From an uncultured Bacilli bacterium (GTDB taxonomy: Bacteria > Bacillota_I > Bacilli_A > RF39 > UBA660): a stretch of DNA of 64,000 nucleotides. Below the pieces are notes generated by a model that had not been told where the DNA came from, did not search any database, and saw nothing but the letters and a program-made list of their open reading frames with translations. The DNA lies in the NCBI GenBank assembly GCA_934190785.1, contig CAKPTA010000001.1, positions 13,514-77,513 on the forward strand, given 5' to 3'. Position numbers and translations under genes: made by a program. This document shows positions 642 through 64,000 of the stretch, piece after piece (position 1 is the first letter of the stretch; each line of letters starts with the position of its first letter).

Positions 642-687
642 CTTTTATATAAATCTTTTTTGTGTTAAAATATATAAGGTGATAGAT

Positions 688-2187: not shown

Positions 2188-2307
2188 AATGGGGTTTATT
2201 AATTCCATTTTTTATTTGCTTTTTTGGAATATGAGATTTAACTTATTTAAATACTTTATCTATTGTTTAATAAATGATATACTACTAGATAGGATAGAGG
2301 TGATTTT

Positions 2308-3324
2308 ATGAATTATATTGATAATGTTAATTATAGAATAAAAGAATATTTTAATGTTTTAGAACCAAAATATCCAAGATGGCTTAATGATTATATAAAT
2401 ACTAAAGAAATGTTGCATCAACAATACATAAGTATTACTTGTGGAACAATTTATTCTGATTTATATAAAAGTGATTTCTTTTTTTCTACTTTAGACCATT
2501 CGATTGCCGTAGCACTTATTATTTGGCATTTTACTCATGATAAAAAACAAACTTTAGCTGGACTTTTTCACGATATTGCAACACCTGTTTTTAAGCATTG
2601 TATTGATTTTTTAAATGGCGACTATATGAATCAAGAATCTACTGAGGATTTAACAACTTTGATTATTAGTAATTCCAATGAAATAATGAAATTATTAAGA
2701 CGTGACAATATTAATATTGATGATGTATGTGATTATCACATATATCCTATTGCAGATAATGATACACCAAGGCTTTCATCTGATCGATTAGAATATTCTC
2801 TTTCTAATGCTTTATTTACATATGATTTAAAAGATATTGATTGGGTATTTAAAATATATAATGATATTGAAGTTGGTACTAATGAAGATGGTATAGCAGA
2901 ACTTGTATTTAAAACAGAGGATGCTGCATTATCTTTTGTTGATGTGACTAGCAAGTTATCAATAATATATAGGGAAGATAAAACAAGATATTCCATGCAA
3001 CTACTAGCTGATATTATTAAACGCTTAAATAATGATAATGTTATTAATAAAAGTGATTTATATACTAAAAAGGAAGAAGAGATAATTGACATTATAAGAA
3101 AATCTAATTGTAGTAGTATTTTTAATAAGTGGGAACATGCTAGGGAGGTAATTTCATCAAAAACAAAACCAGAGGGTGTATATTATGTTCACCATGCCTC
3201 AAAAATAAGATACATTAATCCGCTTGTTAAAAATTCTAGAATATATAATATAAATAAATCAGCCAAAGAAATGATAGATAATAATTTAGCATATGATATG
3301 TCAAATTATATTTATCTTGGTTAA
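2308..3324 (+). CDS. HD-domain phosphohydrolase family protein
   Basis: 'HS..VA…LAGLFHDIATPVFKH' H…HD motif; AGGTGA-like RBS ('agaggtgatttt ATG'). Confidence 0.6.
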   Translation: MNYIDNVNYRIKEYFNVLEPKYPRWLNDYINTKEMLHQQYISITCGTIYSDLYKSDFFFSTLDHSIAVALIIWHFTHDKKQTLAGLFHDIATPVFKHCIDFLNGDYMNQESTEDLTTLIISNSNEIMKLLRRDNINIDDVCDYHIYPIADNDTPRLSSDRLEYSLSNALFTYDLKDIDWVFKIYNDIEVGTNEDGIAELVFKTEDAALSFVDVTSKLSIIYREDKTRYSMQLLADIIKRLNNDNVINKSDLYTKKEEEIIDIIRKSNCSSIFNKWEHAREVISSKTKPEGVYYVHHASKIRYINPLVKNSRIYNINKSAKEMIDNNLAYDMSNYIYLG

Positions 3325-3350
3325 AAATAGTTTAGTTGGGAGGATTTATT

Positions 3351-3980
3351 ATGGCATCTGCTATAATACATATTGCTGTTGCAAAAAAAGTTAATGATAT
3401 AATAAACAGAAATAAAAAAGATTTATATTTAGGTGCAATAGCACCTGATGCGGCAAAAATAATTGGCATTGATAGAAATATAACTCATTTTATAAAAGAA
3501 GATAATGTTGATACACCTAATATAGCGTATTTTAAGCAACTTTATTTTGATAAAATAAAAAGTGACTATGATCTTGGTTATTACATTCATCTTTTAACTG
3601 ATGAATTATGGTTTAGCGAGTTTTTACCTAATTTTGTGTTAGATGATGAAACAATAATTGATCCATCTGGCGAAAAAGTTTCACTTGTTGGTATTACAAT
3701 TGGTGATATCATTTATAATGATTATACAAACTTGAATGCTAAAATAATTGATTATTATAATCTTGATTTAAAACTTTTTTATGAAGAATTTGAATATCCT
3801 AGTCCAACTATAAAAGAAGTACCAGAATGTGCTTTTCCACAAGTTATTGATAAAATGGGACTTATAATAGCGAATTCTACAAAGTATAATTATATTTTGA
3901 AGTTGGATAAAATAACTCATTTTGTTGAATATGCAACAGTATACGTGTTAGAAAAATTGACGGAAGATAATTTAATTTAG
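3351..3980 (+). CDS. hypothetical protein (possible metal-dependent hydrolase fold: N-terminal 'HIAVA…APDA…THF' and 'HLLTDELW')
   Basis: ORF with GGGAGGA RBS 7 nt before ATG 3351. Motifs are reminiscent of Zn-dependent phospholipase C-like small proteins, but the assignment is weak. Confidence 0.45.
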   Translation: MASAIIHIAVAKKVNDIINRNKKDLYLGAIAPDAAKIIGIDRNITHFIKEDNVDTPNIAYFKQLYFDKIKSDYDLGYYIHLLTDELWFSEFLPNFVLDDETIIDPSGEKVSLVGITIGDIIYNDYTNLNAKIIDYYNLDLKLFYEEFEYPSPTIKEVPECAFPQVIDKMGLIIANSTKYNYILKLDKITHFVEYATVYVLEKLTEDNLI

Positions 3981-7265: not shown

Positions 7266-8270
7266 AAGAAAGATTTATCTAGACTTGGTAGGAACTATAT
7301 TATGGCTGGTCATTATTTACAACACTATTTTCCAACTAAAAAAGTTAGATTTATTTCTATTAATGATGAGTATGATAGTTTAAAATATAATAATATTATG
7401 GATAGACTAGATGTTCCATTAAAAAATATGATGTATGATCATATAGCTTATGATATGTCTAATAAAATTAAAAAATCTCTAAGGATAAGTAAAGAAAATG
7501 GAAATTTTGTAGGGGCTTCTGTGATATATGGTTATAAAAAAGATCCAAATGATACTCATAAATTAGTTATAGATAATGAAGCTGCAGATGTTGTTAGAAA
7601 AATATTTCATATGTATTTGCTTGGTATGACTAAATCTGAAATAGCAGATGAATTAAATAAAAACGAAACATTAACACCTGCATTATATAAAAAAAATAAT
7701 GGTTTATGCTATACAAAACCTAAAAAAGATAATAAATGGAATTATGAAATAATAAATAGAATACTTAGAGATGAAAACTATACCGGCACTTTAGTTCAAG
7801 GAAGACGAAGAAACGAAAGTTATATTACACATAAGGAAGTTAAGAATCCAGAAGAAGATTGGATAAAATATGAGAATCATCATGAGGCAATTATTGATAA
7901 GGTTAATTTTATAAAAGTTCAAGAAAGATTAAAGATTCAAAGAAGAAAAACTAATAAAAATGATATATTATCATGATACTTAAAATGTGTTGATTGTAAT
8001 GGTGCCATGATGTTAGTTAAAGGTAAAAAGAACGAATACTATTATTGTAGAAATAGCATAAGTAAAAAGATTTGTACAAAGCATACTTTTAGAAAAGAGA
8101 ATTTACTTGAAGAAGTATTAAATCAAATAAATTTAAAGAAATTAGATGACCAAAAAATCAAAGAATTAAGTAGGGAAGTTGTCATCAAATATCTTGACTC
8201 TGTTATTGTTTATGAAGATAATAAATTAGAAGTAATTATGAAATATGATATAGAACTAATGAAAAATTAA
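7266..8270 (+). pseudogene. large serine recombinase (copy B), 5'-truncated and frameshifted
   Basis: 'KDLSRLGRNY…VRFISINDEYDS…' is followed by the recombinase domain. A frameshift near 7976 separates the zinc-ribbon part 'LKCVDCNGAM…YYYCRNS…C'. There is no N-terminal catalytic region. Confidence 0.65.
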
Positions 8271-10659: not shown

Positions 10660-11274
10660 ATGAATTATAGTGACTACAATGACTATGAATTACTTAGTTA
10701 TGTTCAGGAAAATAATGAAGAAGCTGTAGAGGTATTATATAAAAAATATGAACCATTAATATCTTCAATCGCACATAAAATGTATAGGTATACTCCTAAA
10801 TGTGGTATAGATGTAAATGATTTAAAACAGGAAGGTCGTCTTGGGTTATCAAAAGCTATTTTAGAGTATAAAGATTCTATGAATACAACTTTTTATACTT
10901 TTGCTAAGACTTGTATTGAAAGAAAAATAATTACAGCTGTAATTGCAACAAGGAGATTGAAACATAAGTTTTTAAATGAGTCGCTATCTTTAAACATTGA
11001 ATCTGATGGTAAATCTATTTCATTAGATGAGTTTTTAGGTGATAATGGAAGTAATCCAGAATATGTACTTTTGGATGTTGAAAATTATAATTATATCTTA
11101 GACAAAATATCTGAGGAATTAACAGTACTTGAGAAGCAAGTCTTTAGTCTTCGAATTAGCGGCCTTAGTTATAAAGAAATTGCTGATATTTTATCTTATA
11201 AAGAAAAAGTTATTGATAATTGTTTACAGAGAATAAAAGCAAAAGCTAAAAAAGTTTTGAAAAATATGGAATGA
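10660..11274 (+). CDS. sigH: RNA polymerase sigma factor, SigH-like (sigma-70 family)
   Basis: Sigma-70 regions 2 and 4 ('ELTVLEKQVFSLRISGLSYKEIADIL'); synteny rlmB–sigH–…–secE–nusG matches Bacillus. Confidence 0.65.
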   Translation: MNYSDYNDYELLSYVQENNEEAVEVLYKKYEPLISSIAHKMYRYTPKCGIDVNDLKQEGRLGLSKAILEYKDSMNTTFYTFAKTCIERKIITAVIATRRLKHKFLNESLSLNIESDGKSISLDEFLGDNGSNPEYVLLDVENYNYILDKISEELTVLEKQVFSLRISGLSYKEIADILSYKEKVIDNCLQRIKAKAKKVLKNME

Positions 11275-11395: not shown

Positions 11396-12418
11396 ATGGC
11401 GGAAAAAAAAGATAATGCAGTAGAAGAGATTGAAAGTAAAATTACTGATGAAGAAAATATAGAACCTATTGAAATGGATGATGATTTTTATTATCCTGAA
11501 ATTGATACTTTAGATGACGAAATTAATGCACATAGTGATAAGGATATTAAGGTACCAGATATAAAGCTTGATGAATCTTTAGGTCTTGGTGATGATATAA
11601 AAGAACCACTTGTTTTTAATGCACCAATAGAAAATGAAAAAATGATTTCTTCTTCAAATACTTCTTCAGCAAATAATTCTGATTTTGATACTTTGTTTGA
11701 CAATTTATACAATGATGTTGCAGGAGCAAATAAATTTATATCTAATTTAATTGAGCAAAAGAAAAGTGTTACTGATAATGCAGCAAATCTTGAAGAAGAT
11801 AGAGATAAATTAGAAAAAGAAAAAGCTGAATTTGAACGCTATGTTGAAAGTCAAAAACAAAGTATTGAACTTGCTAAAGCTCAATGTGACGAGTATGTTC
11901 GTACACAAAAGGCAAGAATTCAGAATGAAGAAGCCCAATTTAATGCTGACCAAGAAGCAGCACGAGCTGAGTTAGATCTTAATGATGCCTCTGTTAAAGC
12001 AGCTTCTGAAAAATTAGATTCTGAAAAAACACAATTTTATGTTTATAAAGAGCTAGAAGAAAAGAGACTTGAAGCAGAAAAAGAAAAAGTAGAAAGTGAT
12101 AGAAAAAAATTAGATGCTGATATAAAGCAATTTAATAATGAACAAGATGTTGCATTAACGAAATTAAAATCAGAGCAAGAAGAACTTCAAAATGAAAAAG
12201 ATCAATTCGAAAAATCTAAAAATATTGATTTAGAAAAAATAAAAAATGCACAATTAGAAATTGTAAGTCAAAGAGAACAATTTGAAAAGTTTAAAGATAT
12301 AGAAGAGAAAAAGCTTGAACTTGAAAGTAAAAACTTGTCACAAAGTGTAGCACGTTTTAGAGAACTTGTTTCACAATTTAATTCTGGATTCCAACAATTA
12401 CCTGAAGATAAACGTTAG
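11396..12418 (+). CDS. hypothetical acidic coiled-coil protein (paralog 1)
   Basis: AGGAG RBS. Acidic N-terminus, then long heptad-like 'KxDxEKxQFExxK' repeats; C-terminus 'ARFRELVSQFNSGF'. Confidence 0.6.
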   Translation: MAEKKDNAVEEIESKITDEENIEPIEMDDDFYYPEIDTLDDEINAHSDKDIKVPDIKLDESLGLGDDIKEPLVFNAPIENEKMISSSNTSSANNSDFDTLFDNLYNDVAGANKFISNLIEQKKSVTDNAANLEEDRDKLEKEKAEFERYVESQKQSIELAKAQCDEYVRTQKARIQNEEAQFNADQEAARAELDLNDASVKAASEKLDSEKTQFYVYKELEEKRLEAEKEKVESDRKKLDADIKQFNNEQDVALTKLKSEQEELQNEKDQFEKSKNIDLEKIKNAQLEIVSQREQFEKFKDIEEKKLELESKNLSQSVARFRELVSQFNSGFQQLPEDKR

Positions 12419-12432
12419 TAGAGGTATAAGTA

Positions 12433-13350
12433 ATGAATGAGAATAAGGTTAGGGATAATGAGTCTTTAGATATTAAATTTAAAGATAAGAAAAAGGACAA
12501 AAAAAATAAACCAAAAGACGGAAGCTTTGATTTACTTTCAAGTGCTGGTGATGATTATTTAAATAAATTGTCAGGTGAAAACGAGGCTATCAAGGAAAGT
12601 GAAGAAAAAGATGCAGATACATTACTTGATACGCATGAATTTGATCTTTCAATTGATTTAAATAATTCTGATGCAGCTACTTTAGACTCTAATGATGAAA
12701 AAAATACTTCTACAATTGAAACAAAAGTAGTTAATGATGACTCTAGAAAACTAAGTGATGAAAAAAATAGTAGTTCAGAAAAAAAAGATACTAAGGATTT
12801 AAATAGCATTTTTGAAATAGTTAATAACAACGTAAAAGAAGCTACTAATTTATTCAATAAAAATATTGAAATGAAAAGAAAAATTGAAGAACAACTTGAT
12901 GCTCTTAGAAAAGATAAAGAAGAACATGAAGCTAAAAAGAATGCTGATTATCAAAAAATTAAAACTTATAAACAAGAAGTATATGATAAATTAAAAGCAA
13001 AAAAAGAAGAAGTTGAAAGTGAAATTGCTTCTTTAAAAGAAACACAAATAAAAATTATTAACGAAAAAAACAAGTTTGAAAAATATAAAAGAGAAGAGCT
13101 TACTAGATTAAAAGAACAGGAAGCAAAGAATCAAATTATATTGGAGGAAGAAAAGGCAAAACTTGAAGAAGAAAAAAATAAATTGAAAGTAGAAAAAAAT
13201 TCATTAGAGGAAGCTAAACATTCTTTAGAGCTTGATAGAATTAAATATGAAAATGATAAAAATGAACTTGCCAATAATTTGATGAAATTTAATGAATTGG
13301 TTGGAGATTTTACCGTTGGAATTGATAGATTCAATTTAGATGATAATTAA
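12433..13350 (+). CDS. hypothetical acidic coiled-coil protein (paralog 2)
   Basis: Same architecture as 11396..12418; C-terminus 'MKFNELVGDFTVG' is parallel to paralog 1. Confidence 0.6.
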   Translation: MNENKVRDNESLDIKFKDKKKDKKNKPKDGSFDLLSSAGDDYLNKLSGENEAIKESEEKDADTLLDTHEFDLSIDLNNSDAATLDSNDEKNTSTIETKVVNDDSRKLSDEKNSSSEKKDTKDLNSIFEIVNNNVKEATNLFNKNIEMKRKIEEQLDALRKDKEEHEAKKNADYQKIKTYKQEVYDKLKAKKEEVESEIASLKETQIKIINEKNKFEKYKREELTRLKEQEAKNQIILEEEKAKLEEEKNKLKVEKNSLEEAKHSLELDRIKYENDKNELANNLMKFNELVGDFTVGIDRFNLDDN

Positions 13351-14187: not shown

Positions 14188-14952
14188 ATGATAAAACTTG
14201 ATAACAGAATTAACAACAATAGTGATGCAGCAGAATGCTTTTCATTAATTGGTGAATGTATAAAATTTTATGATGAAATGGATGGTAAGGCACTAGAACA
14301 TATAAAAGTTTTATATGATGTATTAAATAGAGATATTGATACAAGATTGCTTAGTGATAAGTATTTAGGAAAATATCTTGGGCTTAAAGTTTTCTTTTGT
14401 AGTGGACTAGATGGTTATGGCATATTTTCTGGAAATGAAGTTATTAGTCAAAAATGTGAAAAAGAAATGTATAAAACTTTAAAAGATCTATGCTTTCTTA
14501 GTAAGGCTTGTAGTTATAGTGAATTTAAAGATGCTAATAAGGACGTTTGTTTAGAAACTAATGAAGAGTTAAATAAAATCTATAGTATATTAAATAATGA
14601 TTTTAAAATATTATTTGATAATATGGATTCATTTAAAAGAAGAAGTGATTTTTCTTCAGAACTTCGTTTTGTCTTAAATAGCTTTGATGATATGCGTCAA
14701 CCATCATTAAATAGAGAATATATGGATAGTAGCGAGGATATTTCTATTATTCCATATTATTATGTATCTAGTTCATTTATAAAAGAATATTCTAAATTAG
14801 GACAAGAATATAAGAATTTTTTTCAAAAATTATATGAGTATCAGTTAAAATATAATTTGAAGACGAATAAAATAAATGTGGATTCATATGTTAGTGAATC
14901 TAATCGTTTAGTGTGTATTGTTTCTAAGAAAAAGCAAAAGATAAATAAATAG
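14188..14952 (+). CDS. hypothetical protein (no recognisable domain) inserted between nusG and rplK
   Basis: 254-aa ORF with biased composition typical of this genome. The weak GGTGAG RBS is close to the ATG. Confidence 0.45.
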   Translation: MIKLDNRINNNSDAAECFSLIGECIKFYDEMDGKALEHIKVLYDVLNRDIDTRLLSDKYLGKYLGLKVFFCSGLDGYGIFSGNEVISQKCEKEMYKTLKDLCFLSKACSYSEFKDANKDVCLETNEELNKIYSILNNDFKILFDNMDSFKRRSDFSSELRFVLNSFDDMRQPSLNREYMDSSEDISIIPYYYVSSSFIKEYSKLGQEYKNFFQKLYEYQLKYNLKTNKINVDSYVSESNRLVCIVSKKKQKINK

Positions 14953-26741: not shown

Positions 26742-26777
26742 AAACGAATTTTATAATTCGTTTTTATTTTTTTATTT
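26742..26777 (+). terminator. rho-independent terminator after tRNA-Ser
   Basis: AAACGAATTttatAATTCGTTT hairpin plus T-rich tract. Confidence 0.65.
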
Positions 26778-26839
26778 TGATAAATTATAGTTTAGGCAAG
26801 AAAATAGATGCTCCATATATTAAAGTAAGGAGGTATTTT

Positions 26840-27433
26840 ATGTCATTAAAAAAATGTGCTGAAATAGAAAAAAATGCTAAAATTAAAAATAAATTATTAA
26901 ATATTGGCATTGGATATCCAATAATAGGTCCAACAGGACCAAGAGGTGAAGCAGGTCAAAGAGGAGAAAAGGGTGAAAAAGGTGATAAAGGAGATCCTGG
27001 AGTAGATGCTGTTGCTTCAAATGATGGAATTTTTTTCACAAGTTTTGTAGAAACTGATACATCAGAAAAGATGACTTTTCAAGACTCTTGGTTTGTACCA
27101 AATAAAACAGAATTTTTTCAAATATTAAATGATAGTGATGTACAGGTAAAAGCTGGTATTTATGAACTAGCCTTTTCAGGGTTAATAGAACAAGCAGATG
27201 ATACTCATGGAGCTCAAGTTTATCTTCAAACTAGCGAAGGCGAAGCGGTTCACGATTTAACATTTAAGTTGGAAGGTGGAAGTGGAAAACAATTGTCATT
27301 TTCACAGACAATATTGTTTAGATTTGAAAAAGATACAATATTGCAAGTGATGGCAAATATATTAGGTGATGAAGATACATCTGATATTATTATATCTGAT
27401 GTTAATTTACTCATGAAAAAAATTCATGAATAA
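26840..27433 (+). CDS. collagen-like (G-x-y)n repeat protein with C-terminal BclA/C1q-like globular domain
   Basis: 'GPTGPRGEAGQRGEKGEKGDKGDPG' triple-helix repeats followed by a roughly 140-aa beta-rich domain; AAGGAGG RBS before ATG 26840. Confidence 0.7.
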   Translation: MSLKKCAEIEKNAKIKNKLLNIGIGYPIIGPTGPRGEAGQRGEKGEKGDKGDPGVDAVASNDGIFFTSFVETDTSEKMTFQDSWFVPNKTEFFQILNDSDVQVKAGIYELAFSGLIEQADDTHGAQVYLQTSEGEAVHDLTFKLEGGSGKQLSFSQTILFRFEKDTILQVMANILGDEDTSDIIISDVNLLMKKIHE

Positions 27434-27465
27434 ATTTATACGAATAGTCCAGGTACACCCACACG

Positions 27466-27501
27466 CCACTTGACAAGTGGGGGTGGGGTGTATGCTAAAA
27501 T
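27466..27501 (+). promoter_or_regulatory. putative promoter/operator upstream of the pilin-like gene
   Basis: Perfect inverted repeat CCACTTG-a-CAAGTGG (27466..27480) overlaps a TTGACA hexamer (27470..27475). TAAAAT at 27496, but spacing to −35 is non-canonical. The surrounding segment is unusually GC-rich. Confidence 0.35.
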
Positions 27502-27529
27502 ACACTTTAGAATAGAGGTGTATTTTTTT

Positions 27530-29122
27530 ATGAAAAAGAAAGGTTTTACGCTTATAGAATTACTTGCCGTAATAGTTGTTCTAGCAGTAGTCACATTAAT
27601 ATCAATGCCACTAGTATTAAATACAATAGATAAGGCAAAGAAAGGTGCAGCTATAGAATCAGCTAATGGTGTTATATCAGCAGCTGAGAATAAATACATG
27701 AGTAGTATGATAACAGGAGATAAAGATACAAGATTTGATTTTCCAAGTGATACCAAGTTATCAATCAAAGGAACAAGACCAACAAGTGGAACAGTTGTCG
27801 TTGATAAGAAAGGTAATATAAGTGCTACTTTAGAAATAAATGGATACTGCATAGAAAAGACGTTTCTTGAAACATCACCAAAAGTAATAGAAAAAAGTCC
27901 ATGTACAATTAGTGATAGTGAGCTTTTTGAAGCAGAAAAATATAAAGATTCTGTTTTAAATGGAGCAGACCCTGTTATAAATAGTGACTTAGTAGCAGTA
28001 ACAATAGAAAATGATGGAACAGTAAAAAAAGCCGATATCAAAAAAGAATGGTATAACTATAAAAATAAAGTATGGGCCAATGCGATTATTCTAAAAGATA
28101 AAACAATAAACTATGAAGATAATGAAGTAATACCAGAAAGTAATATTGAATCATATTTTGTATGGATACCAAGATATAAATATAGAATATTTAATGAAGG
28201 AAATTATACAAACTATATAGAAGGAAAACCAGAAAGTTCAAGTAAACCAGATACAATAGAAATAGTATTTGAAGATAAAAACACAAGTGTATCAAAAGGA
28301 AGTAAAGTAGGAGAATACTTAACACATCCAGCCTTTACAAGTTTTGAAAGTAATGGATTTTGGATGGGAAAATTTGAAGTAACAGGAAGTACAAGTAATA
28401 TAACAGTAAAACCAAATAATACATCACTTCGAAATATAAATGTAAAATCAATGTTTGAGCTAGCTTACAATTATAATAGAAATTTAGATAGTCATATGTT
28501 AAAAAATACTGAATGGGGAGCAGCTACATACTTATCATATTCAGTATATGGAATAAATGATGAAGTAAATATAAATAATAATAGTAACTTTGTAACAGGA
28601 TATAGTGCGGTTTCTGGAACAGATCAAAGTAGTTATCCTGGAATATATGGAACCGCATCAAATATAACACTTGCATATAATACAGAAACAGGATATAGGG
28701 CAAGTACAACAGGAAATATAAGTGGAGTATACGATATGAGTGGAGGAGCATGGGAATACATGGCTTCATATGTAAAAGATACATATAAAGATAGTGGTTT
28801 TGATGCATCCTCAATATCTAAGTATAATTCAAAATACTTTGATGTTTATCCAAGTCCAAGTGGATGGACAAGCTATAACAAACGAATTTTAGGAGATGCA
28901 ACGGGAGAGATGGGACCATTCTATTATTACAAAGAAAAAGATGAAACTAGTAGAATACATAACTCTTGGTTTGGTGTCTCCTCTGACTTCGTTGTCGCTT
29001 CTTACCCTTGGTTCGGTCGCGGAGGCCGTTACACTGGCGGCGTTCTTGCAGGTCAGTCGGGCTTCGGTAGGTTCACTGGTGGTGCGCTCGGTTGGGGTGG
29101 CTTCCGCCTCGCTCTTACATAA
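27530..29122 (+). CDS. type IV pilin-like protein with large C-terminal domain (prepilin-type N-terminal cleavage/methylation signal)
   Basis: 'MKKKGFTLIELLAVIVVLAVVTL' class-III signal peptide. 530-aa body rich in N/T/S/Y. Gly/Arg-rich C-terminal tail. AGAGGTG RBS. Confidence 0.7.
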   Translation: MKKKGFTLIELLAVIVVLAVVTLISMPLVLNTIDKAKKGAAIESANGVISAAENKYMSSMITGDKDTRFDFPSDTKLSIKGTRPTSGTVVVDKKGNISATLEINGYCIEKTFLETSPKVIEKSPCTISDSELFEAEKYKDSVLNGADPVINSDLVAVTIENDGTVKKADIKKEWYNYKNKVWANAIILKDKTINYEDNEVIPESNIESYFVWIPRYKYRIFNEGNYTNYIEGKPESSSKPDTIEIVFEDKNTSVSKGSKVGEYLTHPAFTSFESNGFWMGKFEVTGSTSNITVKPNNTSLRNINVKSMFELAYNYNRNLDSHMLKNTEWGAATYLSYSVYGINDEVNINNNSNFVTGYSAVSGTDQSSYPGIYGTASNITLAYNTETGYRASTTGNISGVYDMSGGAWEYMASYVKDTYKDSGFDASSISKYNSKYFDVYPSPSGWTSYNKRILGDATGEMGPFYYYKEKDETSRIHNSWFGVSSDFVVASYPWFGRGGRYTGGVLAGQSGFGRFTGGALGWGGFRLALT

Positions 29123-32751: not shown

Positions 32752-33543
32752 ATGAAACTTTATTTAGATTTGATCTTTTTTCTGAATTTTAGTTTTGATT
32801 TTATGCTTTTACTTACTGTATCTGTAGTCCTTAAAAGAAATGTTTCTTTTAAAAGAATTTTTATGGGAGCTTTAATTGGTGCTATGAGTATTTTTTGTTT
32901 GTTTATTAAAATATCTTCTTTTACTCTTTTTTTATTTAAATTATTTATTAGTGTGATTATGATTATAGTTACATTTAAATTTAAAGATTTTTCATATTTT
33001 ATCAAAAATATGGGATATTTTTATATGGTAAGTATTATTTTAGGTGGTTTCTTATATTATCTAAATATTGAATTTTCTTATAAACAAGAAGGACTTGTTT
33101 TTTATCACCACGGCTTGTCAATTAATTTTGTTATCTTAGTTATAATTTCGCCTATTATTTTATATAATTATATAAGACAGGCACGTTTTTTTCGTAAAAG
33201 TGTTAGTTATTATCACAATGTTAGTTTGATGTATAAGGGCATTAAATATAATTTGTTTGGATATTTGGATACTGGTAATACTCTAAAGAGTCCATATTCT
33301 AACAAATGTGTTTCTATTATTAATAAAAATATTTTAACAGATATTAGTGACTCTGACGTTATATACATTAAGGCATCAACAGTATCGTCAAGTAAACTTA
33401 TGAAATGTATAAAAGTTAGTTATTTAAAAATTGATAATAAATATATTTATGATGCTCTTGTTGGAATTAGTTATGAAGATATTTTATTTGATGGGGTAGA
33501 TATTTTATTAAATAGGGATATATTGGAGGATGAAAATTTATGA
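32752..33543 (+). CDS. spoIIGA: sigma-E processing peptidase SpoIIGA
   Basis: Multi-TM N-terminus 'MKLYLDLIFFLNFSFDFMLL' and aspartic protease motif 'GYLDTGNTL'; immediately followed by sigE. Confidence 0.85.
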   Translation: MKLYLDLIFFLNFSFDFMLLLTVSVVLKRNVSFKRIFMGALIGAMSIFCLFIKISSFTLFLFKLFISVIMIIVTFKFKDFSYFIKNMGYFYMVSIILGGFLYYLNIEFSYKQEGLVFYHHGLSINFVILVIISPIILYNYIRQARFFRKSVSYYHNVSLMYKGIKYNLFGYLDTGNTLKSPYSNKCVSIINKNILTDISDSDVIYIKASTVSSSKLMKCIKVSYLKIDNKYIYDALVGISYEDILFDGVDILLNRDILEDENL

Positions 33544-34229
33544 TTAGAAAATTAATTAGCTTTTTTTATAGAATATTTAGAAGTAATAGTATTTTCTTTG
33601 TTGGTAGTGCAGATAAACTTCCAGAACCATTATCAAAAGAAGATGAGATTTTTTATGTTGAAAAAGCAACTTTGGGTGATACAGAAGCCAAAAGTAAATT
33701 AATAGAACATAATTTAAGATTGGTTGTCTTTTTAGCTAAAAAATATGAAAATACAGGTGTTGATTTAGAGGATTTAGTAAGTATTGGTACAATTGGACTT
33801 ATTAAGGGAATAAATACATATAAATTAGATAAGAATATTAAGCTTGCAACATATGCATCTCGTTGTATTGATAATGAAATATTAATGTTTTTAAGAAAAA
33901 ATAAAAAAAGAAAAAGTGAAATTAGTTTTGAAGATAGTCTTAGTTATGACAGTGAAGGTAATGAACTTCATTTAGAAGATATTTTAGGAACGGATGAAGA
34001 TATTGTTACATCTGGCCTAGAGAGAGAAACAGAAAAGAACTTATTATTAGGTGAAATAAATAGACTAAAGGGTAGAGATAGAGAAATTATGATTATGAGA
34101 TATGGACTTTTTGGAGCTGATGCAATGACACAAAAAGATGTTGCACTTACACTTGGAATTAGTCAGTCATATATATCGAGAATTGAAAAGAAAATAATTT
34201 TACGTTTAAAAAATAATATTCGTGTGTAA
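33540..34229 (+). CDS. sigE: sporulation sigma factor SigE (pro-sigma-E)
   Basis: Pro-sequence, then 'LSKEDEIFYVEKATLGDTEAKSKLIEHNLRLVVFLAKKYENTGVDLEDLVSIGTIGLIKGINTY'; overlaps the spoIIGA stop. Confidence 0.9.
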   Translation: MIRKLISFFYRIFRSNSIFFVGSADKLPEPLSKEDEIFYVEKATLGDTEAKSKLIEHNLRLVVFLAKKYENTGVDLEDLVSIGTIGLIKGINTYKLDKNIKLATYASRCIDNEILMFLRKNKKRKSEISFEDSLSYDSEGNELHLEDILGTDEDIVTSGLERETEKNLLLGEINRLKGRDREIMIMRYGLFGADAMTQKDVALTLGISQSYISRIEKKIILRLKNNIRV

Positions 34230-58149: not shown

Positions 58150-59778
58150 ATGGAAGTATCAGTAGTAAAAAGTAAAAAAGAAATTAAATTGTATTTAGAT
58201 GGATATAGTAGAGTTATTAATGAAACATTTTGCTATATTCTAGGAAATATATATAATTTAGATAAACTTGCCCCAAGTGGTATAACAAATGAGGAAAAAT
58301 TAATAGAGGCATATAAAATATATAAAAATAAACTATTTAAAAAACTAGATGGTGAATTTGCTATAATACTCATTTTTAATGGGAATATTACATGTGTTAG
58401 AGATAGAATGGGTAGCAAGCAAATATATTATATGTTGAAAGATGATACAACAGTTATATCAACTTCATTAGGCTTTTTTATAAAAAATTATAAAGAAATG
58501 TTAAATATAGATAGACAAGTATTATCTAATTATTTATGTTATTCCTATATACAAGCTCCAAATACTATTTTTAAAGAAGTATCTAAATTAGAATCAGGCA
58601 GTTTTGTACAGTTTAAAAATAGTACTGTACTTATAAAAAAATATTATAATTTAGTTAATGAATATTTAAAAAGTAAAGATAAATTACATGGAAAAAAATC
58701 ATTTGCGGCAATGGAAGATAGTTTAAAAAAAGCTGTTTTAAAACGCGTAAAAAATAAAAATAAAATAGGTATATTTTTTAGTGCTGGAATTGATTCTACC
58801 TTATTAGCGTCACTCTCACATGAATTAACTGATAAGGAAATACATGCTTATACAATAGGCTTTTATGATGAAGAAAGAAACGAAGCTGTGAGAGCTAAGA
58901 AAATTGCTGAGTATATTGGCATTAATTATCACGAATTTTATATAGATGATATAGCTGCAAAAGAAATAATTCATCAACTTCCTTTCATTTATTCAGAACC
59001 ATTTGCAGATCCATCAATGATACCAACTGTATTTTTAAATCAAAACGTCGATAAGGTTGATGTTATTTTAACTGGAGATGGAGCTGATCAATTATTTTGT
59101 GGCTCTAGCGTTTATGATACAGTGTATGAACGCAATATCTTTGCACTGTTACAAAAAGAATTTCTAGAAATAATTCATAGAAGAAAAAAATACAAACAAG
59201 CAAAAGATAGTATTTTAAAGGTATATAATGGTAAAAAAGATATGGCTTTAAAATTTGTAGATATAGAACCAAACAGTTATTATGATCTAGCTTTAGTTCC
59301 TCTTAAAGCTCAAATTAAATATATGTTGTTTGATATTAAAACTTTTTTAGCAAATAGATTATTTAGTAAAGTTAGTTTTCCAGCAGGTTACTATAATCTA
59401 AACATTACGCATCCTTTTGTTGATAATGAATTTGTAGATAAAACATTAAAACTTAGTCATAAGTATAAATATAATTATAAAGTTAAAAAATATATTTTGA
59501 AGAAAATATTATATAAAAGAATACCAGAAGAATTATTAAATCAGAAGAAGTGTGGATTTGGAATTCCACTTAAGGAATGGCTTTATAATATATACAGAGA
59601 AGATATAATATTGTTATCAAATGAAGAATTTATAAAGAAACAAAATTTATTTAATTTTAATAAAGTAAATAATATAATACAAAAACTTAATAATAATTCA
59701 CTAAACCATAAGGAAGCCTATACTTTATTCGCATATTATATGTTTCAACTTTGGTATAAAGCTTATATAGAAAATTAA
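58150..59778 (+). CDS. asparagine synthetase B-like amidotransferase/amidoligase lacking the N-terminal Cys nucleophile (paralog of 52573..54222)
   Basis: 'VRDRMGSKQIYY', PP-loop 'FSAGIDST'; N-terminus 'MEVSVVK…' has no Cys2. Confidence 0.65.
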   Translation: MEVSVVKSKKEIKLYLDGYSRVINETFCYILGNIYNLDKLAPSGITNEEKLIEAYKIYKNKLFKKLDGEFAIILIFNGNITCVRDRMGSKQIYYMLKDDTTVISTSLGFFIKNYKEMLNIDRQVLSNYLCYSYIQAPNTIFKEVSKLESGSFVQFKNSTVLIKKYYNLVNEYLKSKDKLHGKKSFAAMEDSLKKAVLKRVKNKNKIGIFFSAGIDSTLLASLSHELTDKEIHAYTIGFYDEERNEAVRAKKIAEYIGINYHEFYIDDIAAKEIIHQLPFIYSEPFADPSMIPTVFLNQNVDKVDVILTGDGADQLFCGSSVYDTVYERNIFALLQKEFLEIIHRRKKYKQAKDSILKVYNGKKDMALKFVDIEPNSYYDLALVPLKAQIKYMLFDIKTFLANRLFSKVSFPAGYYNLNITHPFVDNEFVDKTLKLSHKYKYNYKVKKYILKKILYKRIPEELLNQKKCGFGIPLKEWLYNIYREDIILLSNEEFIKKQNLFNFNKVNNIIQKLNNNSLNHKEAYTLFAYYMFQLWYKAYIEN

Positions 59779-59804
59779 AAAGAAGACTTAATCTTCTTTT
59801 TTTG
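59779..59804. terminator. bidirectional rho-independent terminator
   Basis: AGAAGActtaaTCTTCT hairpin flanked by A-run and T7. The loop contains the stop codon of the minus-strand small ORF. Confidence 0.65.
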
Positions 59805-59958
59805 CTTTATAACTAGCACACATTGTAGTCTTTTTTTCGCCACAACCATCGCAGTTGCATACGTCAATTTTTTTAAGTCCACACTTGTCGCATTTACAAT
59901 CACAATGTTCACAGTCGTGAACTTTACAATTAATTGTTTGTTCATCGTTTTTTTTCAA
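59788..59958 (-). CDS. unannotated 56-aa cysteine-rich small protein (10 Cys; metallothionein-like/metal-binding peptide)
   Basis: GGGTGA RBS 5 nt before TTG 59958. Translation is 'MKKNDEQTINCKVHDCEHCDCKCDKCGLKKIDVCNCDGCGEKKTTMCASYKAKKED'. An alternative GTG start lies 9 nt upstream. Absent from the ORF track (<60 aa). Confidence 0.45.
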   Translation of the reverse strand: MKKNDEQTINCKVHDCEHCDCKCDKCGLKKIDVCNCDGCGEKKTTMCASYKAKKED

Positions 59959-60045
59959 TTTAATCACCCATTTTTATTTTTATCAAAGTTTAATAATTTA
60001 TTCATAAAATAAAAACAAATTCATACGATTATATGGGTGAATGAT

Positions 60046-60957
60046 ATGGACAAGATAGTAATTGGAATACCAAGAAGTTTATACTACTATTATTTTAAAG
60101 ATTTATGGCTTTCGTTTTTTCAAGGTTTAAACATAAAAGTCGTTGTTAGTCCAAAAACAACTAAAGATATTGTAATGCTTGGAAGCAAATATGGAAGTGA
60201 TGAGATGTGCACTGCTATGAAAAATTATTTAGGTCATGTTGCTTATCTTAAAGATAAATGTGATTACATTTTAATTCCACGAATTGATAATTATGGAATT
60301 GAAAATCAGACATGTACTAATTATTTATCATGTTATGACATTGTAAATAACTTAATCACAAATAAGATAATTGATTATAATATTGACATTAATCATGGAA
60401 AAACAGAAGAAAAAGCATTTATACAAATAGGAAAAATACTTGGGTATGATACAGAATTTACAAAAAGAGTTTACTATGAAGCATTAACAGTTGCAAATAA
60501 TAAAAAAGACGCTATAGTAAAAGCTAATATGGTTGCTTTAAAAAGTGAACACACGAAACTATTGATAGTTGCTCATCCATATATAATTCATGATTCATAT
60601 TTTGGTGATGAAATAAAAAATTATCTAAAAAAACAAAATGTTGATGTCATTTATAGTGATAGATTTAATAGTAGTTTAACATCTCGTATGAGTAAAATGT
60701 ATTCTAAAGAACTTTATTTTAAATATTCTAAAGAAAACATTGGTGCTCTTGCCCTTACAAGAAAACTAATAGATGGTGTTATTTTTTTGACAGCTTTTCC
60801 TTGTGGACCTGATTCACTTACAAATGAGTTAGTTATCCGAAAAATAGATATTCCATATTTACAGTTAATTCAAGATGATCTTGATGGTGTTGCTGGAATG
60901 GAAACTAGATTAGAAAGTTTTCTAGATATTATAGAAAGGAAAAAAGTACATGAATAA
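60046..60957 (+). CDS. DUF2229-type 'CoA-substrate-specific enzyme activase' domain protein
   Basis: 'IGIPRSLYYYYFKDLWLSFFQGLNIKVVVSPKTTKDIV…EMCTAMKNYLGHVAYLKDKCDYILIPRI' matches the DUF2229 N-terminal consensus. GGGTGA RBS before ATG 60046. Confidence 0.6.
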   Translation: MDKIVIGIPRSLYYYYFKDLWLSFFQGLNIKVVVSPKTTKDIVMLGSKYGSDEMCTAMKNYLGHVAYLKDKCDYILIPRIDNYGIENQTCTNYLSCYDIVNNLITNKIIDYNIDINHGKTEEKAFIQIGKILGYDTEFTKRVYYEALTVANNKKDAIVKANMVALKSEHTKLLIVAHPYIIHDSYFGDEIKNYLKKQNVDVIYSDRFNSSLTSRMSKMYSKELYFKYSKENIGALALTRKLIDGVIFLTAFPCGPDSLTNELVIRKIDIPYLQLIQDDLDGVAGMETRLESFLDIIERKKVHE

Positions 60958-62020
60958 ACTAAATGTTTCATTTCCACATATGGGTAATTACAGTATTCCT
61001 GTTGAATATTTACTATCACATATACTAAATTGTGATATTATGGTAGCTCCTAAAATAACTAGTTCAACGATTGAAGAAGGTACAAAACATAGTCCTGAAT
61101 TTGTTTGTACTCCATTTAAATATACACTTGGTACATTTATTGAGGCTTTAGATGGAGGTGCCAATGTATTAATTCAAGCTGGTGGTGGCTGTAGGTATGG
61201 ATATTATAGTGAACTGCAAGAAAAAATATTAAAAGATTTAGGTTATAATTTTACATATATTAATTTAGTTAGTAGAGGTTATACTGATATTCATAGAATA
61301 TATAAAAAAATGAAAAGTATTGACCCTAAATTTAGTAAAATAAAAGGTATTTATTATAGCTATATTACTAAAAACATGATTAAGTATATGGATAGAGTAG
61401 AAGATTTTATTCGCCTTCATATTGGTTTTGAAGTAAATAAAGGTTCTTTTGAAAAAATAGAAAAAGAAATGCTTCGTGATTTTTCAAATGTAAGTAATCC
61501 AGTATCACTCTATATTCTTTATAAGAAATATTTAAGAAAAATAAAAAAGGTAAAAGTTAATATTCCCAAAAATGCTATGAAAGTTGGTATTATTGGTGAA
61601 CTTTATACACTCATGGAACCATTTGCTAATTATGATCTTGAAAAATTATTAGCAAGTTATGGTATTGCTGTTAAAAGATATACTAATGTACATTATTTAT
61701 TATTTGAAAAAAAGTACAAAATAAAGAAATATTTAAAATATGCTCGTGAGTATGTTAAATATAAAATGGGAGCGGATGCTGCTGATAATATTGCACGTAC
61801 AAAATATTTATGTGCTAATAATTATGATGGAATTATACATATTAAATCGTCTTTTTGTACTCCAGAGATTGGAGCTATGCCTATCATTAATAAGATATGT
61901 AAGGAATATAATGTTCCTGTTATATTTTTTTCTTTTGATGCAGCAACATCAGAAGTTGGAATAAAAACAAGAATAGAAGCATTTTATGATATGTTAGAAA
62001 TGAGGAAGAAGCATGAATAA
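60950..62020 (+). CDS. 2-hydroxyacyl-CoA dehydratase component-D-like / double-cubane-cluster-protein-like subunit
   Basis: 'VCTPFKYTLGTFIEALDGGANVLIQAGGGCRYGYY' and 'SSFCTPEIG' resemble HgdB-family cluster-binding regions. Start overlaps the upstream stop in a 'CATGAATAA' junction. Confidence 0.55.
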   Translation: MNKLNVSFPHMGNYSIPVEYLLSHILNCDIMVAPKITSSTIEEGTKHSPEFVCTPFKYTLGTFIEALDGGANVLIQAGGGCRYGYYSELQEKILKDLGYNFTYINLVSRGYTDIHRIYKKMKSIDPKFSKIKGIYYSYITKNMIKYMDRVEDFIRLHIGFEVNKGSFEKIEKEMLRDFSNVSNPVSLYILYKKYLRKIKKVKVNIPKNAMKVGIIGELYTLMEPFANYDLEKLLASYGIAVKRYTNVHYLLFEKKYKIKKYLKYAREYVKYKMGADAADNIARTKYLCANNYDGIIHIKSSFCTPEIGAMPIINKICKEYNVPVIFFSFDAATSEVGIKTRIEAFYDMLEMRKKHE

Positions 62021-62972
62021 TTGTTATTTAGGAATTGATATAGGTTCAATTTCAACTAAAGGTGTTGTAATAGATGAGAATAATAATATTATTGCAAGAG
62101 AATATATTTGGACAGAAGGTAATCCTAAGGAAGCAGCATCTAGATTACTTGGTATTCTAAAAAGTAAATTAAGCAAAAAATATGTAGTTAAAGGTATTGG
62201 AACAACAGGTAGTGCCAGAAAATTAATTGGGTTAATGGTTGATGCGAATATCGTCAAAAATGAGATAACAGCTCATGCCGTAGGTACTTTATCAAAATAT
62301 CCAGATGTTAAAACAATTTTAGAAATAGGTGGGCAAGATTCTAAAATAATTATATTAGATAATGGTATTATCACTGATTATTCAATGAATACATTGTGTT
62401 CAGCGGGAACAGGATCATTTTTATCAAGTCAAGCTAAAAGACTTGGAATAGAGGTAGAAAATTTTGGATCCCTTGCTCTAAAATCAAAAAATCCCGTTAA
62501 AATAGCAGCAAGATGTACTGTTTTTGCAGAATCTGATTTAATTCATAAAGCCCAAGTAGGGTATAAATTAGAAGATATTGTAGCAGGATTATGTAAAAGT
62601 ATAGTTCTTAATTATTTGAATAATGTTGGCAAAGGTAAAAAGATTAAAGGCCCTATTATTTTTCAGGGTGGTGTTAGTAAAAATAAGGGTGTTGTTCATT
62701 TCTTTAAAGAAATTTTAAAAGAAGATATAATAGTTGATGAAGATAGTCATTTAATGGGAGCTCTTGGAATTGCTATTATGGCTCATGAAAAAGCAAATGG
62801 TAAAATATATAATTTAGATTTAAAACATATGAAACTTGATACTAAAGGGTTTGAGTGTAAAAGATGCGCTAATAATTGTGAAATCTTAAGAATATATAAA
62901 GAAGGAGAATTAGTTGATACTTGGGGAAGTAGATGTGGAAGAGATTTTTCAAGTGATAAAGTAAAACAATAG
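62013..62972 (+). CDS. BadF/BadG/BcrA/BcrD-type ATPase (HgdC-like activator) with C-terminal Cys-rich extension
   Basis: 'LGIDIGSISTKGVVID', 'EITAHAVGT', 'LEIGGQDSKIIIL'. Cluster-bridging Cys in 'CSAGTGSFL' and 'AARCTVFAESD'. C-terminal 'CKRCANNC…C'. Same 'CATGAATAA' junction. Confidence 0.7.
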   Translation: MNNCYLGIDIGSISTKGVVIDENNNIIAREYIWTEGNPKEAASRLLGILKSKLSKKYVVKGIGTTGSARKLIGLMVDANIVKNEITAHAVGTLSKYPDVKTILEIGGQDSKIIILDNGIITDYSMNTLCSAGTGSFLSSQAKRLGIEVENFGSLALKSKNPVKIAARCTVFAESDLIHKAQVGYKLEDIVAGLCKSIVLNYLNNVGKGKKIKGPIIFQGGVSKNKGVVHFFKEILKEDIIVDEDSHLMGALGIAIMAHEKANGKIYNLDLKHMKLDTKGFECKRCANNCEILRIYKEGELVDTWGSRCGRDFSSDKVKQ

Positions 62973-62979
62973 GCTAGGC

Positions 62980-63312
62980 CTATTGTTTTCTTATATTAAT
63001 ATAATTTTGTTCTTTTATCATTTTATATAATGCACTATCATGCGAAAATTCATATGTATAATATACATCTTTTTTATTAAAAATTATTCTATTTGGTTTC
63101 ATATTTTCTTTTGTATAAATAATTTCATTATTTTTATTAGTCATAATTACATCTATATTTTGAAACATAAAAAAAGTGTGAATACTGTTGCACCTAGGAA
63201 AACAATATATAGAGTTAATGTGACGTTTTTTAAAACTCATACCAAGTAGTCTTGCTTTAAAATTATTACAATATATAACAGGAATTGTTTTGTTCTTAAA
63301 TATAATTTCCAT
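62980..63312 (-). CDS. DUF192 domain protein
   Basis: 'ARLLGMSFKKR…CNSIHTFFMFQNIDVIM' DUF192 pattern. Internal ATG 63312 is preceded by an AGGTGA RBS; the track's TTG 63357 has no RBS. Confidence 0.6.
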   Translation of the reverse strand: MEIIFKNKTIPVIYCNNFKARLLGMSFKKRHINSIYCFPRCNSIHTFFMFQNIDVIMTNKNNEIIYTKENMKPNRIIFNKKDVYYTYEFSHDSALYKMIKEQNYINIRKQ

Positions 63313-63350
63313 GATATCACCTATAACTAATATATCACGTATAAAATAAA

Positions 63351-63377
63351 TTGACAAATGGTAGAAAAAAGTATAAT
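63351..63377 (+). promoter_or_regulatory. putative promoter of the flp pilin gene
   Basis: TTGACA, 15–16 nt, TATAAT; AGGAGGG RBS before ATG 63412. Confidence 0.45.
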
Positions 63378-63411: not shown

Positions 63412-63609
63412 ATGAGACTAAATGAAAGAGGGCAAGCACTTGTTGAGTACTTATTAATTATCGCTGTTATAAGTGTTGTTGTTGTTAGTGTTGTAAAACT
63501 TCTTGGAGGTTATTTACACGATTCAATGGTTAAATCATCTTGTAATTTGGTAGATAAAGTTTATGTAGAGGGTTCAAAACCTGGAGAAGCTACTTGTGTA
63601 GATCAATAA
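63412..63609 (+). CDS. flp: Flp-family type IVb pilin
   Basis: 'MRLNERGQALVEYLLIIAVISVVVVSV' Flp motif (G/xxxxEY) plus hydrophobic helix; 65 aa. Confidence 0.7.
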   Translation: MRLNERGQALVEYLLIIAVISVVVVSVVKLLGGYLHDSMVKSSCNLVDKVYVEGSKPGEATCVDQ

Positions 63610-63699
63610 AACTTCTTTTAGAAGTTTTTTTTCTATTCCAATTATTGTATATAACTTCATTTTTTGATATAATTTGTATATGGTAAAGAGAGTGATTTA

Positions 63700-64000
63700 A
63701 TGAATAGAAAAGGGCAAGCATTAGTGGAATTTGTGCTTATTATACCAGTCTTTATTTTACTAGTTCTAGGTGTGCTTGAATTTGGTAATATTATTTATCA
63801 AAAGTACCAGTTAGAAAGTAAATTAGATTATATAGTGGAGTTATATAAAGCAGATGAATTAGATGAAGCAAGTAGTTATGCTTCTAAAGAAAAGATTAAT
63901 GTTAATTATAGTAGCGAAGATAATTTCACTAAAATTATTGCATCAAAACAAAAACAAGTTTCAGCGCCAGTTGTTTCTAATATTTTAGGAAAGAATTATA
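63700..64000 (+). CDS. TadE/TadG-like pseudopilin (3'-truncated by the window edge)
   Basis: 'MNRKGQALVEFVLIIPVFILLVLGVLEFGNIIY' TadE-like N-terminal motif. Confidence 0.65.
   Translation, partial: MNRKGQALVEFVLIIPVFILLVLGVLEFGNIIYQKYQLESKLDYIVELYKADELDEASSYASKEKINVNYSSEDNFTKIIASKQKQVSAPVVSNILGKNY

Follow-up and report, generated by a model that had tools for sequence, protein, structure and literature searches.

The 64-kb stretch of DNA analyzed here (64,000 nucleotides (nt) from an uncultured Bacilli bacterium, hereafter the window) contains a small, cysteine-rich gene on its minus strand at positions 59788-59958. The coding sequence runs from a TTG codon (59958-59956) to a TAA stop codon (59790-59788), and translation from TTG 59958 yields a 56-residue peptide, MKKNDEQTINCKVHDCEHCDCKCDKCGLKKIDVCNCDGCGEKKTTMCASYKAKKED, that contains ten cysteines and is lysine- and acid-rich besides. 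Cysteine accounts for 17.9% of the residues (10/56), compared with 1.2% in the long open reading frames (ORFs) of the window, and the G+C content of the small ORF (32%) exceeds that of the window (27%) and that of the spacer upstream of the ORF (18%). An earlier reading of the same DNA (the original prediction) described a 56-residue, ten-cysteine minus-strand ORF with a TTG start and a GGGTGA ribosome-binding site, and exactly this peptide is found at the locus. A longer form of 59 residues that begins at a GTG codon (59788-59967, minus strand) is listed by the ORF tool. We favor TTG 59958 as the better-supported start, because GTG 59967 falls within the putative ribosome-binding site. The Shine-Dalgarno sequence GGGTGAT occupies positions 59969-59963, 5 nt before the TTG, in what would be a very short 5' leader (59959-59969, minus strand). 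The same GGTGAT/GGAGG site precedes an ATG, GTG or TTG codon at the homologous start in the 58 related loci described below, so that the start site and ribosome-binding site of the original prediction are conserved in relatives.

The small gene was said to be unannotated, and this holds for the records that we searched. In these records, the exact 59-residue product is known only from Logan/ENA gene calls, and the 56-residue form is absent. Neither form comes from an NCBI source, whereas both flanking proteins do (270,974-bp NCBI contig), and gene callers passed over the small gene on four long contigs of the same species. The present analysis adds this overlooked gene to the genome annotation.

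The small gene is divergent from a three-gene operon on the plus strand and convergent with an AsnB-like gene (58150-59778, plus strand). The operon comprises a gene for a DUF2229 protein (60046-60957), a gene for a protein with DUF2229 and HGD-D domains (60950-62020) and a gene for a BcrAD_BadFG activase (62013-62972; 319 residues, a single activase domain), and is followed by a DUF192 gene (62980-63357) on the opposite strand. The spacer between the small-gene TTG and ATG 60046 of the DUF2229 gene measures 87 bp (59959-60045; 88 bp in the original prediction), and the divergent arrangement of the original prediction stands. ATG 60046 is the DUF2229 start chosen by gene callers (303 residues) and is also found in NCBI records. 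The start listed by the ORF tool, GTG 60037 (306 residues), sits inside the GGGTGA ribosome-binding site of the DUF2229 gene itself.

At its 3' end, the small gene runs into a putative bidirectional intrinsic terminator (59777-59801, both strands), an A/U-rich 11-bp hairpin with U-runs on either side. In the minus-strand RNA, 59801-59791 pairs with 59787-59777, and the UAA stop codon of the small gene (59790-59788) forms the 3-nt loop, in agreement with the earlier claim that the stop codon is located in the loop of a terminator stem shared with the AsnB-like gene. The folding free energy of the hairpin is -9.5 kcal/mol on the minus strand (z = -2.5) and -10 kcal/mol on the plus strand (z = -3.6), and the hairpin likely terminates both the small gene and the convergent AsnB-like gene. 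A consensus terminator scan omits the hairpin because the stem has two G-C pairs and the rule needs at least three.

Is the small ORF a gene? Its length alone is weak evidence, because an ORF of at least 56 codons arises in 4.9% of shuffles of the 267-bp gap, and a chance ORF would also fit the omission of the small gene by gene callers on several long contigs and the broken frame of one relative (L076). However, conservation across species and protein clusters settles the question and makes a chance ORF extremely improbable. A complete HMMER search of 1.84 billion cluster representatives identified 22 relatives at E<1e-3, each 50-69 residues long, and about 260 protein clusters at 90% identity match the profile of the small protein. 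In species-representative genomes, intact ORFs with conserved ribosome-binding sites were located at 58 loci by patterns derived from a close alignment of eight sequences, as a 23-sequence peptide alignment was too divergent for patterns. All 58 carriers are gut metagenome-assembled genomes (MAGs), labelled uncultured Bacilli, Tenericutes, 'Clostridium sp. CAG:417' and similar, and together with the window they provide 59 copies of the gene.

The small protein is conserved from residue 7 to residue 50, as in a folded domain. Among 121 aligned homologues, I9, C11, V13, C16, C26, L28, T45 and C47 are invariant, and four further cysteines are highly conserved (C19 in 98%, C36 in 94%, C34 in 93% and C21 in 78%), which gives the cysteine spacing C-x4-C-x2-C-x-C-x4-C-x7-C-x-C-x10-C. 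The two other cysteines of the window protein, C23 and C39, are variable, and C39 is kept in 16% of the homologues. Hydrophobic positions are conserved as well (I9, V13, L28, I31, V33, M46 and Y50) and therefore point to a defined fold. In five of the closest-related homologue pairs, the ratio of non-synonymous to synonymous substitution rates (dN/dS) ranges from 0.03 to 0.31; only these pairs were relied on, because the synonymous sites of distant pairs are saturated and AT-biased. Two strain variants (~98% DNA identity) differ in the ORF at five synonymous and two non-synonymous positions and do not differ in the upstream spacer. The conservation of the peptide and of its synonymous-site pattern, to which the original prediction had looked for confirmation, is thus present in 58 genomes and in the five close pairs, respectively. 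Judged from these sequence comparisons, the small ORF is almost certainly a genuine gene under purifying selection.

In L076 (3740-4010), whose DUF2229 protein is 88% identical to that of the window, homopolymer-length changes break the small-gene frame twice. L076 has A7 where the window has A8 directly after the TTG (59947-59954), and it has a longer A-run near the 3' end. The corresponding A-run of the window (59797-59803) codes for the AKKE tail and lies inside the terminator stem. The frame breaks of L076 may reflect either homopolymer sequencing error or slippage-prone tracts.

The small protein is assigned with near certainty, on profile evidence, to DUF1540 (PF07561 / IPR011437) as a divergent single-domain member. 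The window protein matches PF07561 with E = 0.034 and 14.7 bits (Pfam cut-off 22.1) and aligns across the full profile (1-40/40). PF07561 is matched by all 23 representative homologues at E <= 1 (best 6.3e-9) and by 74 of the 121 subfamily members at E <= 1e-3 (best 2e-8). Moreover, several homologues carry a precomputed DUF1540 domain, and one is named 'DUF1540 domain-containing protein' by NCBI. DUF1540 is characterized by a signature of four conserved cysteines (PMC7677010, PMC6878958). C11, C16, C26 and C47, which are invariant in the 121 sequences and lie within the profile-aligned residues 9-50, correspond to this signature. Together, the homologues form a compact branch of DUF1540 whose members have one domain and 7-10 cysteines and which is widespread among low-GC gut Bacilli that have not been cultured. 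In the literature, the consensus string GHATR was found only in unrelated papers.

The only studied DUF1540 member is CdeA (CD2375 / CD630_23750) of Clostridioides difficile, a cysteine-rich protein of the spore surface (exosporium) that contains two DUF1540 blocks and whose function is not known (PMC7677010, PMC6878958, PMC9610443). CD2375 is a gene of the sigmaG regulon, given its decreased expression in sigF and sigG mutants, its mapped promoter and the presence of its protein in spores (PMC3789822). DUF1540 co-varies with endospore formation across genomes (PMC2955703), and CdeA homologues are found chiefly in gut spore formers (PMC6878958). CdeA and the window protein resemble each other in the four-cysteine signature, in being small and cysteine-rich and in lacking a known biochemical function. 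They differ in that CdeA is ~11 kDa with two DUF1540 blocks (PMC6878958, PMC7677010), whereas the window protein has one block in 56 residues and four extra conserved cysteines (C19, C21, C34 and C36). In addition, CdeA comes from the Peptostreptococcaceae and has been seen in spores, whereas the window protein comes from uncultured low-GC gut Bacilli and is read from DNA. Because it contains a single DUF1540 block rather than two in tandem, we regard the window protein as a family relative of CdeA and not as its orthologue.

The original prediction noted that the cysteine motifs fit neither a ferredoxin nor a rubredoxin, and this judgment is borne out. The window protein matches no ferredoxin, rubredoxin or other Fe-S family in Pfam, NCBIfam or PDB sequences. 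Rubredoxins, ferredoxins and metallothioneins are likewise small and cysteine-rich, and the window copy has one CxxCG-like motif (C36-D-G-C39-G). However, the conserved cysteine spacing fits none of the three and differs from the CxxCxxCxxxCP cluster motif and the paired CxxCG knuckles of ferredoxins and rubredoxins. At E up to 1, Pfam and NCBIfam gave no match to bacterial metallothioneins or other metal-binding families, and a profile search of PDB sequences gave chance-level pentapeptide-repeat matches only (E about 0.14) and no related solved structure. Small acid-soluble spore proteins (SASPs) and other small proteins of the sigmaG regulon share with the small protein its size, its charged composition and a forespore-type promoter. 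SASPs are cysteine-poor DNA-binding proteins, and they show no sequence similarity to the small protein; tblastn with SASP queries found no match in the window or the related loci.

The region upstream of the small gene contains a putative sigmaF/sigmaG-type promoter (59975-60004, minus strand) that consists of a -35 element, TGAATAA (60004-59998), a 14-nt spacer and a -10 element, ATAAAAATA (59983-59975). When the 59 upstream regions are aligned on their start codons, a conserved tttATGAATA block is followed ~17 nt later by (C/A)A(T/A)AATA, immediately ahead of the ribosome-binding site. The promoter block occurs in the same place at most of the 58 related loci and is kept in most, although not all, of the loci that lack an adjacent operon. 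For each small gene, the preceding 80 nt were scored with a two-block sigmaF/G weight matrix from 44 start-mapped C. difficile promoters (PMC3789822 Table S6), which was chosen because CD2375 belongs to the sigmaG regulon. The median best score of the 59 small-gene upstream regions is 12.3 bits, compared with 5.3 bits upstream of other genes at these loci (480 regions), 6.1 bits for 168 AT-matched controls and 5.8 bits for shuffles of the target regions. A score of at least 12 bits is reached by 54% of the targets and by 1.2% of the AT-matched controls (Mann-Whitney p = 8e-19, a value that overstates the independence of mutually related loci). A spacer of 14 nt is preferred, and 14-18 nt separate the end of the -10 element from the start codon. 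The window promoter reaches 14.0 bits, whereas the 99th percentile of the 480 controls lies at 12.8, and it is among ten matches of at least 13 bits on both strands of the 64 kb. By analogy with mapped C. difficile promoters, in which the distance from the -10 element to the start of transcription is 6 nt, the transcript of the small gene would begin near 59969. The predicted promoter is also of the same type as that of CdeA, TGTATAA...TCAATAATA (PMC3789822).

The motif appears to be specific for sigmaF/G as well as conserved in position. Matrices for sigmaE and sigmaK (PMC3789822 Table S7) and for sigmaA (TTGACA-N17-TATAAT) show no enrichment upstream of the small gene. A sigmaA promoter was considered and rejected, as neither a consensus scan nor the matrix supports it, and a sigmaH reading of the ATGAATA block was discarded for want of a conserved AGGA-type -35 element upstream. 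Both the DUF1540 family and the conserved forespore-type promoter had been missed by the original prediction. The promoter provides independent sequence evidence for a forespore expression program in never-cultured gut bacteria with reduced genomes, and it argues that the association of DUF1540 with spores extends beyond C. difficile.

These observations also bear on the proposal that the small protein is a general metallothionein-like metal buffer or a thiol-rich stress protein that acts outside sporulation. Such a role would suit its cysteine content (18%), its C-x-C and C-x-x-C motifs, its many charged residues and the lack of enzyme-like features. However, the conserved hydrophobic positions indicate a defined fold, no metallothionein or metal-binding Pfam/NCBIfam family is matched, and a conserved forespore-type promoter is present where no sigmaA-type promoter is found. 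We therefore consider a buffer outside sporulation quite improbable. Metal binding as a property of the protein would fit a forespore-expressed spore protein equally.

The window contains genes of the sporulation program in addition to the small gene. A spoIIGA gene (32752-33543, plus strand; PF03419 E = 9.6e-41, TIGR02854 110 bits) is directly followed by a sigma factor gene whose best match is SigE (33540-34229, plus strand; NF006158 306 bits, NCBI cut-off 339), and the low-GC organism thus retains mother-cell sporulation machinery. The next gene encodes a HAD hydrolase; in Bacillus and Clostridium, the position after sigE is occupied by sigG. A SigH-like factor is encoded at 10660-11274, upstream of nusG. 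The uncultured gut Bacilli orders RF39, RFN20 and ML615J-28 are predicted to include spore formers with genes for sigmaE/sigmaG activation (PMC10868615), and the labels of the MAGs suggest that the relatives of the window belong to a group of this RF39/RFN20/ML615J-28 type.

On the basis of family, promoter and organism, we propose that the small gene probably encodes a forespore-expressed, cysteine-rich DUF1540 spore protein. Late in endospore formation, RNA polymerase with sigmaG, and possibly also with sigmaF, would start transcription at TGAATAA-N14-ATAAAAATA (60004-59975). The 5' end of the resulting mRNA would nearly coincide with the Shine-Dalgarno sequence itself, translation would begin at TTG 59958, and transcription would end at the A/U-rich hairpin that presents the stop codon as its loop. 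The four invariant and four highly conserved cysteines would hold the small domain together through metal binding or disulfide cross-links, and the protein would become a component of the spore, like the two-domain CdeA of C. difficile. We infer the actual expression of the gene, its dependence on sigmaG, the location of the protein in the spore and its cysteine chemistry from DNA and comparison.

Several points weigh against a forespore-expressed spore protein. Within the 64-kb window, neither sigG nor sigF nor any other forespore gene was seen. The promoter was called with a matrix from a distant species, C. difficile, on DNA that is 81% A+T, and the 59 loci to which the p-values refer are related to one another. 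The window protein by itself scores under the Pfam cut-off (14.7 vs. 22.1 bits). The analogy with CdeA offers little mechanism, because CdeA has two blocks and no known function. An AlphaFold2 model built on the 121 homologues is poor (predicted local distance difference test (pLDDT) 60.6, predicted template modeling score (pTM) 0.25) and is silent on the fold or a metal site. Furthermore, the adjacency of the small gene to the operon in 46 of the 58 genomes could yet mean a functional link.

The divergent operon matches DUF2229 (8.8e-34), HGD-D (2.8e-13), BcrAD_BadFG (5.3e-49) and TIGR00241 (1.4e-57), and its DUF2229 protein matches no NCBIfam model. Ger, a glycerol ester reductase, and PlsA/PlsR, a plasmalogen synthase, are defined by this combination of BcrAD_BadFG, DUF2229 and HGD-D (PMC13159169, PMC12838417, PMC8788747), and both belong to the oxygen-sensitive BCR/HAD radical-enzyme group (PMC12838417). 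The characterized examples are CPE1194/1195 of C. perfringens and EF1327 of E. faecalis for PlsA/PlsR and Tmari_0479 of T. maritima for Ger. The likeness between these enzymes and the window operon, both of BCR/HAD type, is one of domains. The characterized systems have a fused or two-gene architecture and two activase domains (PMC13159169), whereas the window operon consists of three separate genes with one activase domain and without the fused BBD(H/D)n architecture. An activase homodimer could replace the tandem activase domains.

Does the small protein work with this operon? The original prediction had proposed to look for conservation beside activase-type operons, and 46 of the 58 related genomes do have the small gene immediately divergent from the operon. 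The AsnB-like and DUF192 flanks of the window are not conserved, and the AsnB-like gene is missing from all 58 related loci. A FemAB-family gene (~418 residues) follows the small gene at a distance of ~70-1000 nt in 31 of the 58 loci (within L019-L070), at the position that the AsnB-like gene holds in the window. In the reverse direction, 71 metagenome loci with relatives of the DUF2229 protein were informative; the small gene is adjacent to the operon in 27 of them and not adjacent in 44, which are mostly more distant relatives of the operon. In many loci without the small gene (L086-L133), FemAB abuts the operon directly, and in other distant loci a diacylglycerol kinase or a ~230-residue sigma factor is divergent from the operon (L140 344-1270; L145 93-788; L144, L148). 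The diacylglycerol kinase neighbor fits a lipid role for the operon. A scan of the genome collection with a single DUF2229 protein found no relatives. Conversely, the small gene lies away from the operon, beside unrelated genes, in about ten genomes, and six of the ten full-flank loci of this kind (L035, L043, L044, L051, L056 and L069) still score at least 10 bits with the sigmaF/G matrix.

The adjacency invites the idea of a dedicated redox or metal partner, that is, an Fe-S or metal protein that feeds low-potential electrons to the BcrAD-type activase or otherwise assists it. HgdC/BCR-type activases require a low-potential electron donor (PMC12838417), and the eight conserved cysteines, the pairing in 46 genomes with otherwise unconserved AsnB-like and DUF192 flanks and the adjacency in the 27 metagenome loci would all suit such a partner. 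However, most of the informative loci have the operon but no small gene beside it, the small gene also occurs off the operon in loci of which six in ten still score at least 10 bits, and no Fe-S family is matched. FemAB, which shares the synteny, abuts the operon where the small gene is missing, and therefore the pairing of the small gene with the operon looks inherited. The promoter types also differ on the two sides of the spacer, and if they are assigned correctly, they would place the products in different compartments. The adjacency noted in the original prediction is observed, but the FemAB synteny, the operon loci without the small gene and the differing promoter types weaken the idea of a redox partner, and we regard a dedicated partner as unlikely. 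The arrangement is best read as an ancestral order, in which the operon diverges from the small gene and femAB follows the small gene, that decayed differently by lineage, rather than as an obligate functional pair. Inherited gene order is the probable explanation of the conserved adjacency, perhaps together with a common sporulation control via back-to-back promoters. The adjacency is no evidence that the operon enzymes act on or with the peptide.

On the operon side of the spacer, a possible mother-cell (sigmaE-like) promoter is found at 60001-60029 (plus strand; TTCATAA, a 13-nt spacer and TCATACGAT), which we treat as a lead. Scored with the C. difficile sigmaE matrix, 47 upstream regions of the operon have a median of 10.0 bits, whereas AT-matched controls have 6.9 bits (p = 1e-9), a moderate enrichment. 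SigmaE/sigmaK-like elements are enriched on the operon side of the 87-bp spacer and of the homologous spacers of L013-L070, with no match to a sigmaA-type promoter in the 47 regions. The register of the sigmaE element is ambiguous, as the -10 element ends either 15 or 34 nt before the start codon, and the window site scores 4.9 bits and is not the best matrix hit. Part of the sigmaE signal on the operon side stems from a block common to the -35 element of the small gene. The operon -35 element TTCATAA, the reverse complement of TTATGAA at the -35 of the small gene, overlaps the small-gene -35 element by 4 bp (60001-60004). As a lead only, the divergent promoters may overlap back to back, and both leaders would begin almost at the Shine-Dalgarno sequence.

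These promoters raise the further idea that the peptide and a split PlsA/PlsR-like operon form one sporulation module with overlapping promoters, in which sigmaF/G would direct the peptide and a sigmaE-like factor the operon, and in which the cysteine-rich protein would serve as a metal/Fe-S partner or redox sensor in ether-lipid (plasmalogen-type) remodeling of the spore membranes of uncultured gut Bacilli with reduced genomes. The PlsA/PlsR-Ger papers PMC13159169, PMC12838417, PMC9702350 and PMC8788747 mention no DUF1540 partner. We consider such a module speculative and improbable. If it were true, a biochemical role would be assigned to DUF1540 for the first time, and spore formation would be tied to the synthesis of ether lipids. 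The pairing with the PlsA/PlsR-like operon is a testable lead.

The original prediction also suggested a cysteine-rich precursor of a ribosomally synthesized and post-translationally modified peptide (RiPP), to be modified by the Fe-S/ATPase neighbors or, in a variant of the same idea, by the AsnB-like protein as a lasso-cyclase-like enzyme. The peptide is indeed small and cysteine-rich, and the AsnB-like neighbor weakly matches a lasso-peptide cyclase model (76.8 bits vs. a cut-off of 525). However, conservation spans nearly the whole peptide and does not divide into a conserved leader and a variable core, and the conserved neighbors are the BCR/HAD-type operon and FemAB, with no radical-SAM, YcaO, lanthipeptide, protease or export gene among them. 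In the window, the AsnB-like gene, absent from the related loci, is part of a sugar/polysaccharide cluster, and the studied DUF1540 member is an unprocessed structural spore protein. To our knowledge, BCR/HAD-type enzymes do not act as peptide maturases. A RiPP precursor is therefore exceedingly unlikely. The AsnB-like gene as a marker of a lasso-type RiPP cluster was likewise rejected, given the weak cyclase match and the lack of conservation. The small gene is an overlooked member of a known, uncharacterized family and not a new kind of peptide system.

Other features of the window lie apart from the small gene. In the plus-strand region 26777-29122, a gene for a 218-residue collagen triple-helix-repeat protein, reminiscent of BclA-type spore-surface or adhesin proteins, is followed by a gene for a 550-residue protein that combines a pilin-type methylation motif at its N-terminus with an FGE-sulfatase-like domain. 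Several plus-strand ORFs of 200-530 residues (604-3980, 11396-13350 and 14188-14952) have no Pfam/NCBIfam match at E up to 1e-3. Downstream of the operon, at 63412-64000 (plus strand) and at 4400-6960 of L071, a Flp/Tad-type pilus cluster begins that includes a 65-residue Flp-like pilin, two TadE-like proteins, a CpaE/ParA-like ATPase and a T2SSE ATPase. Finally, a 224-residue ORF at 7302-7976 (plus strand) has, of the domains of large serine recombinases, 'Recombinase' (PF07508) alone and may be left over from a mobile element or a sporulation-type excision element.

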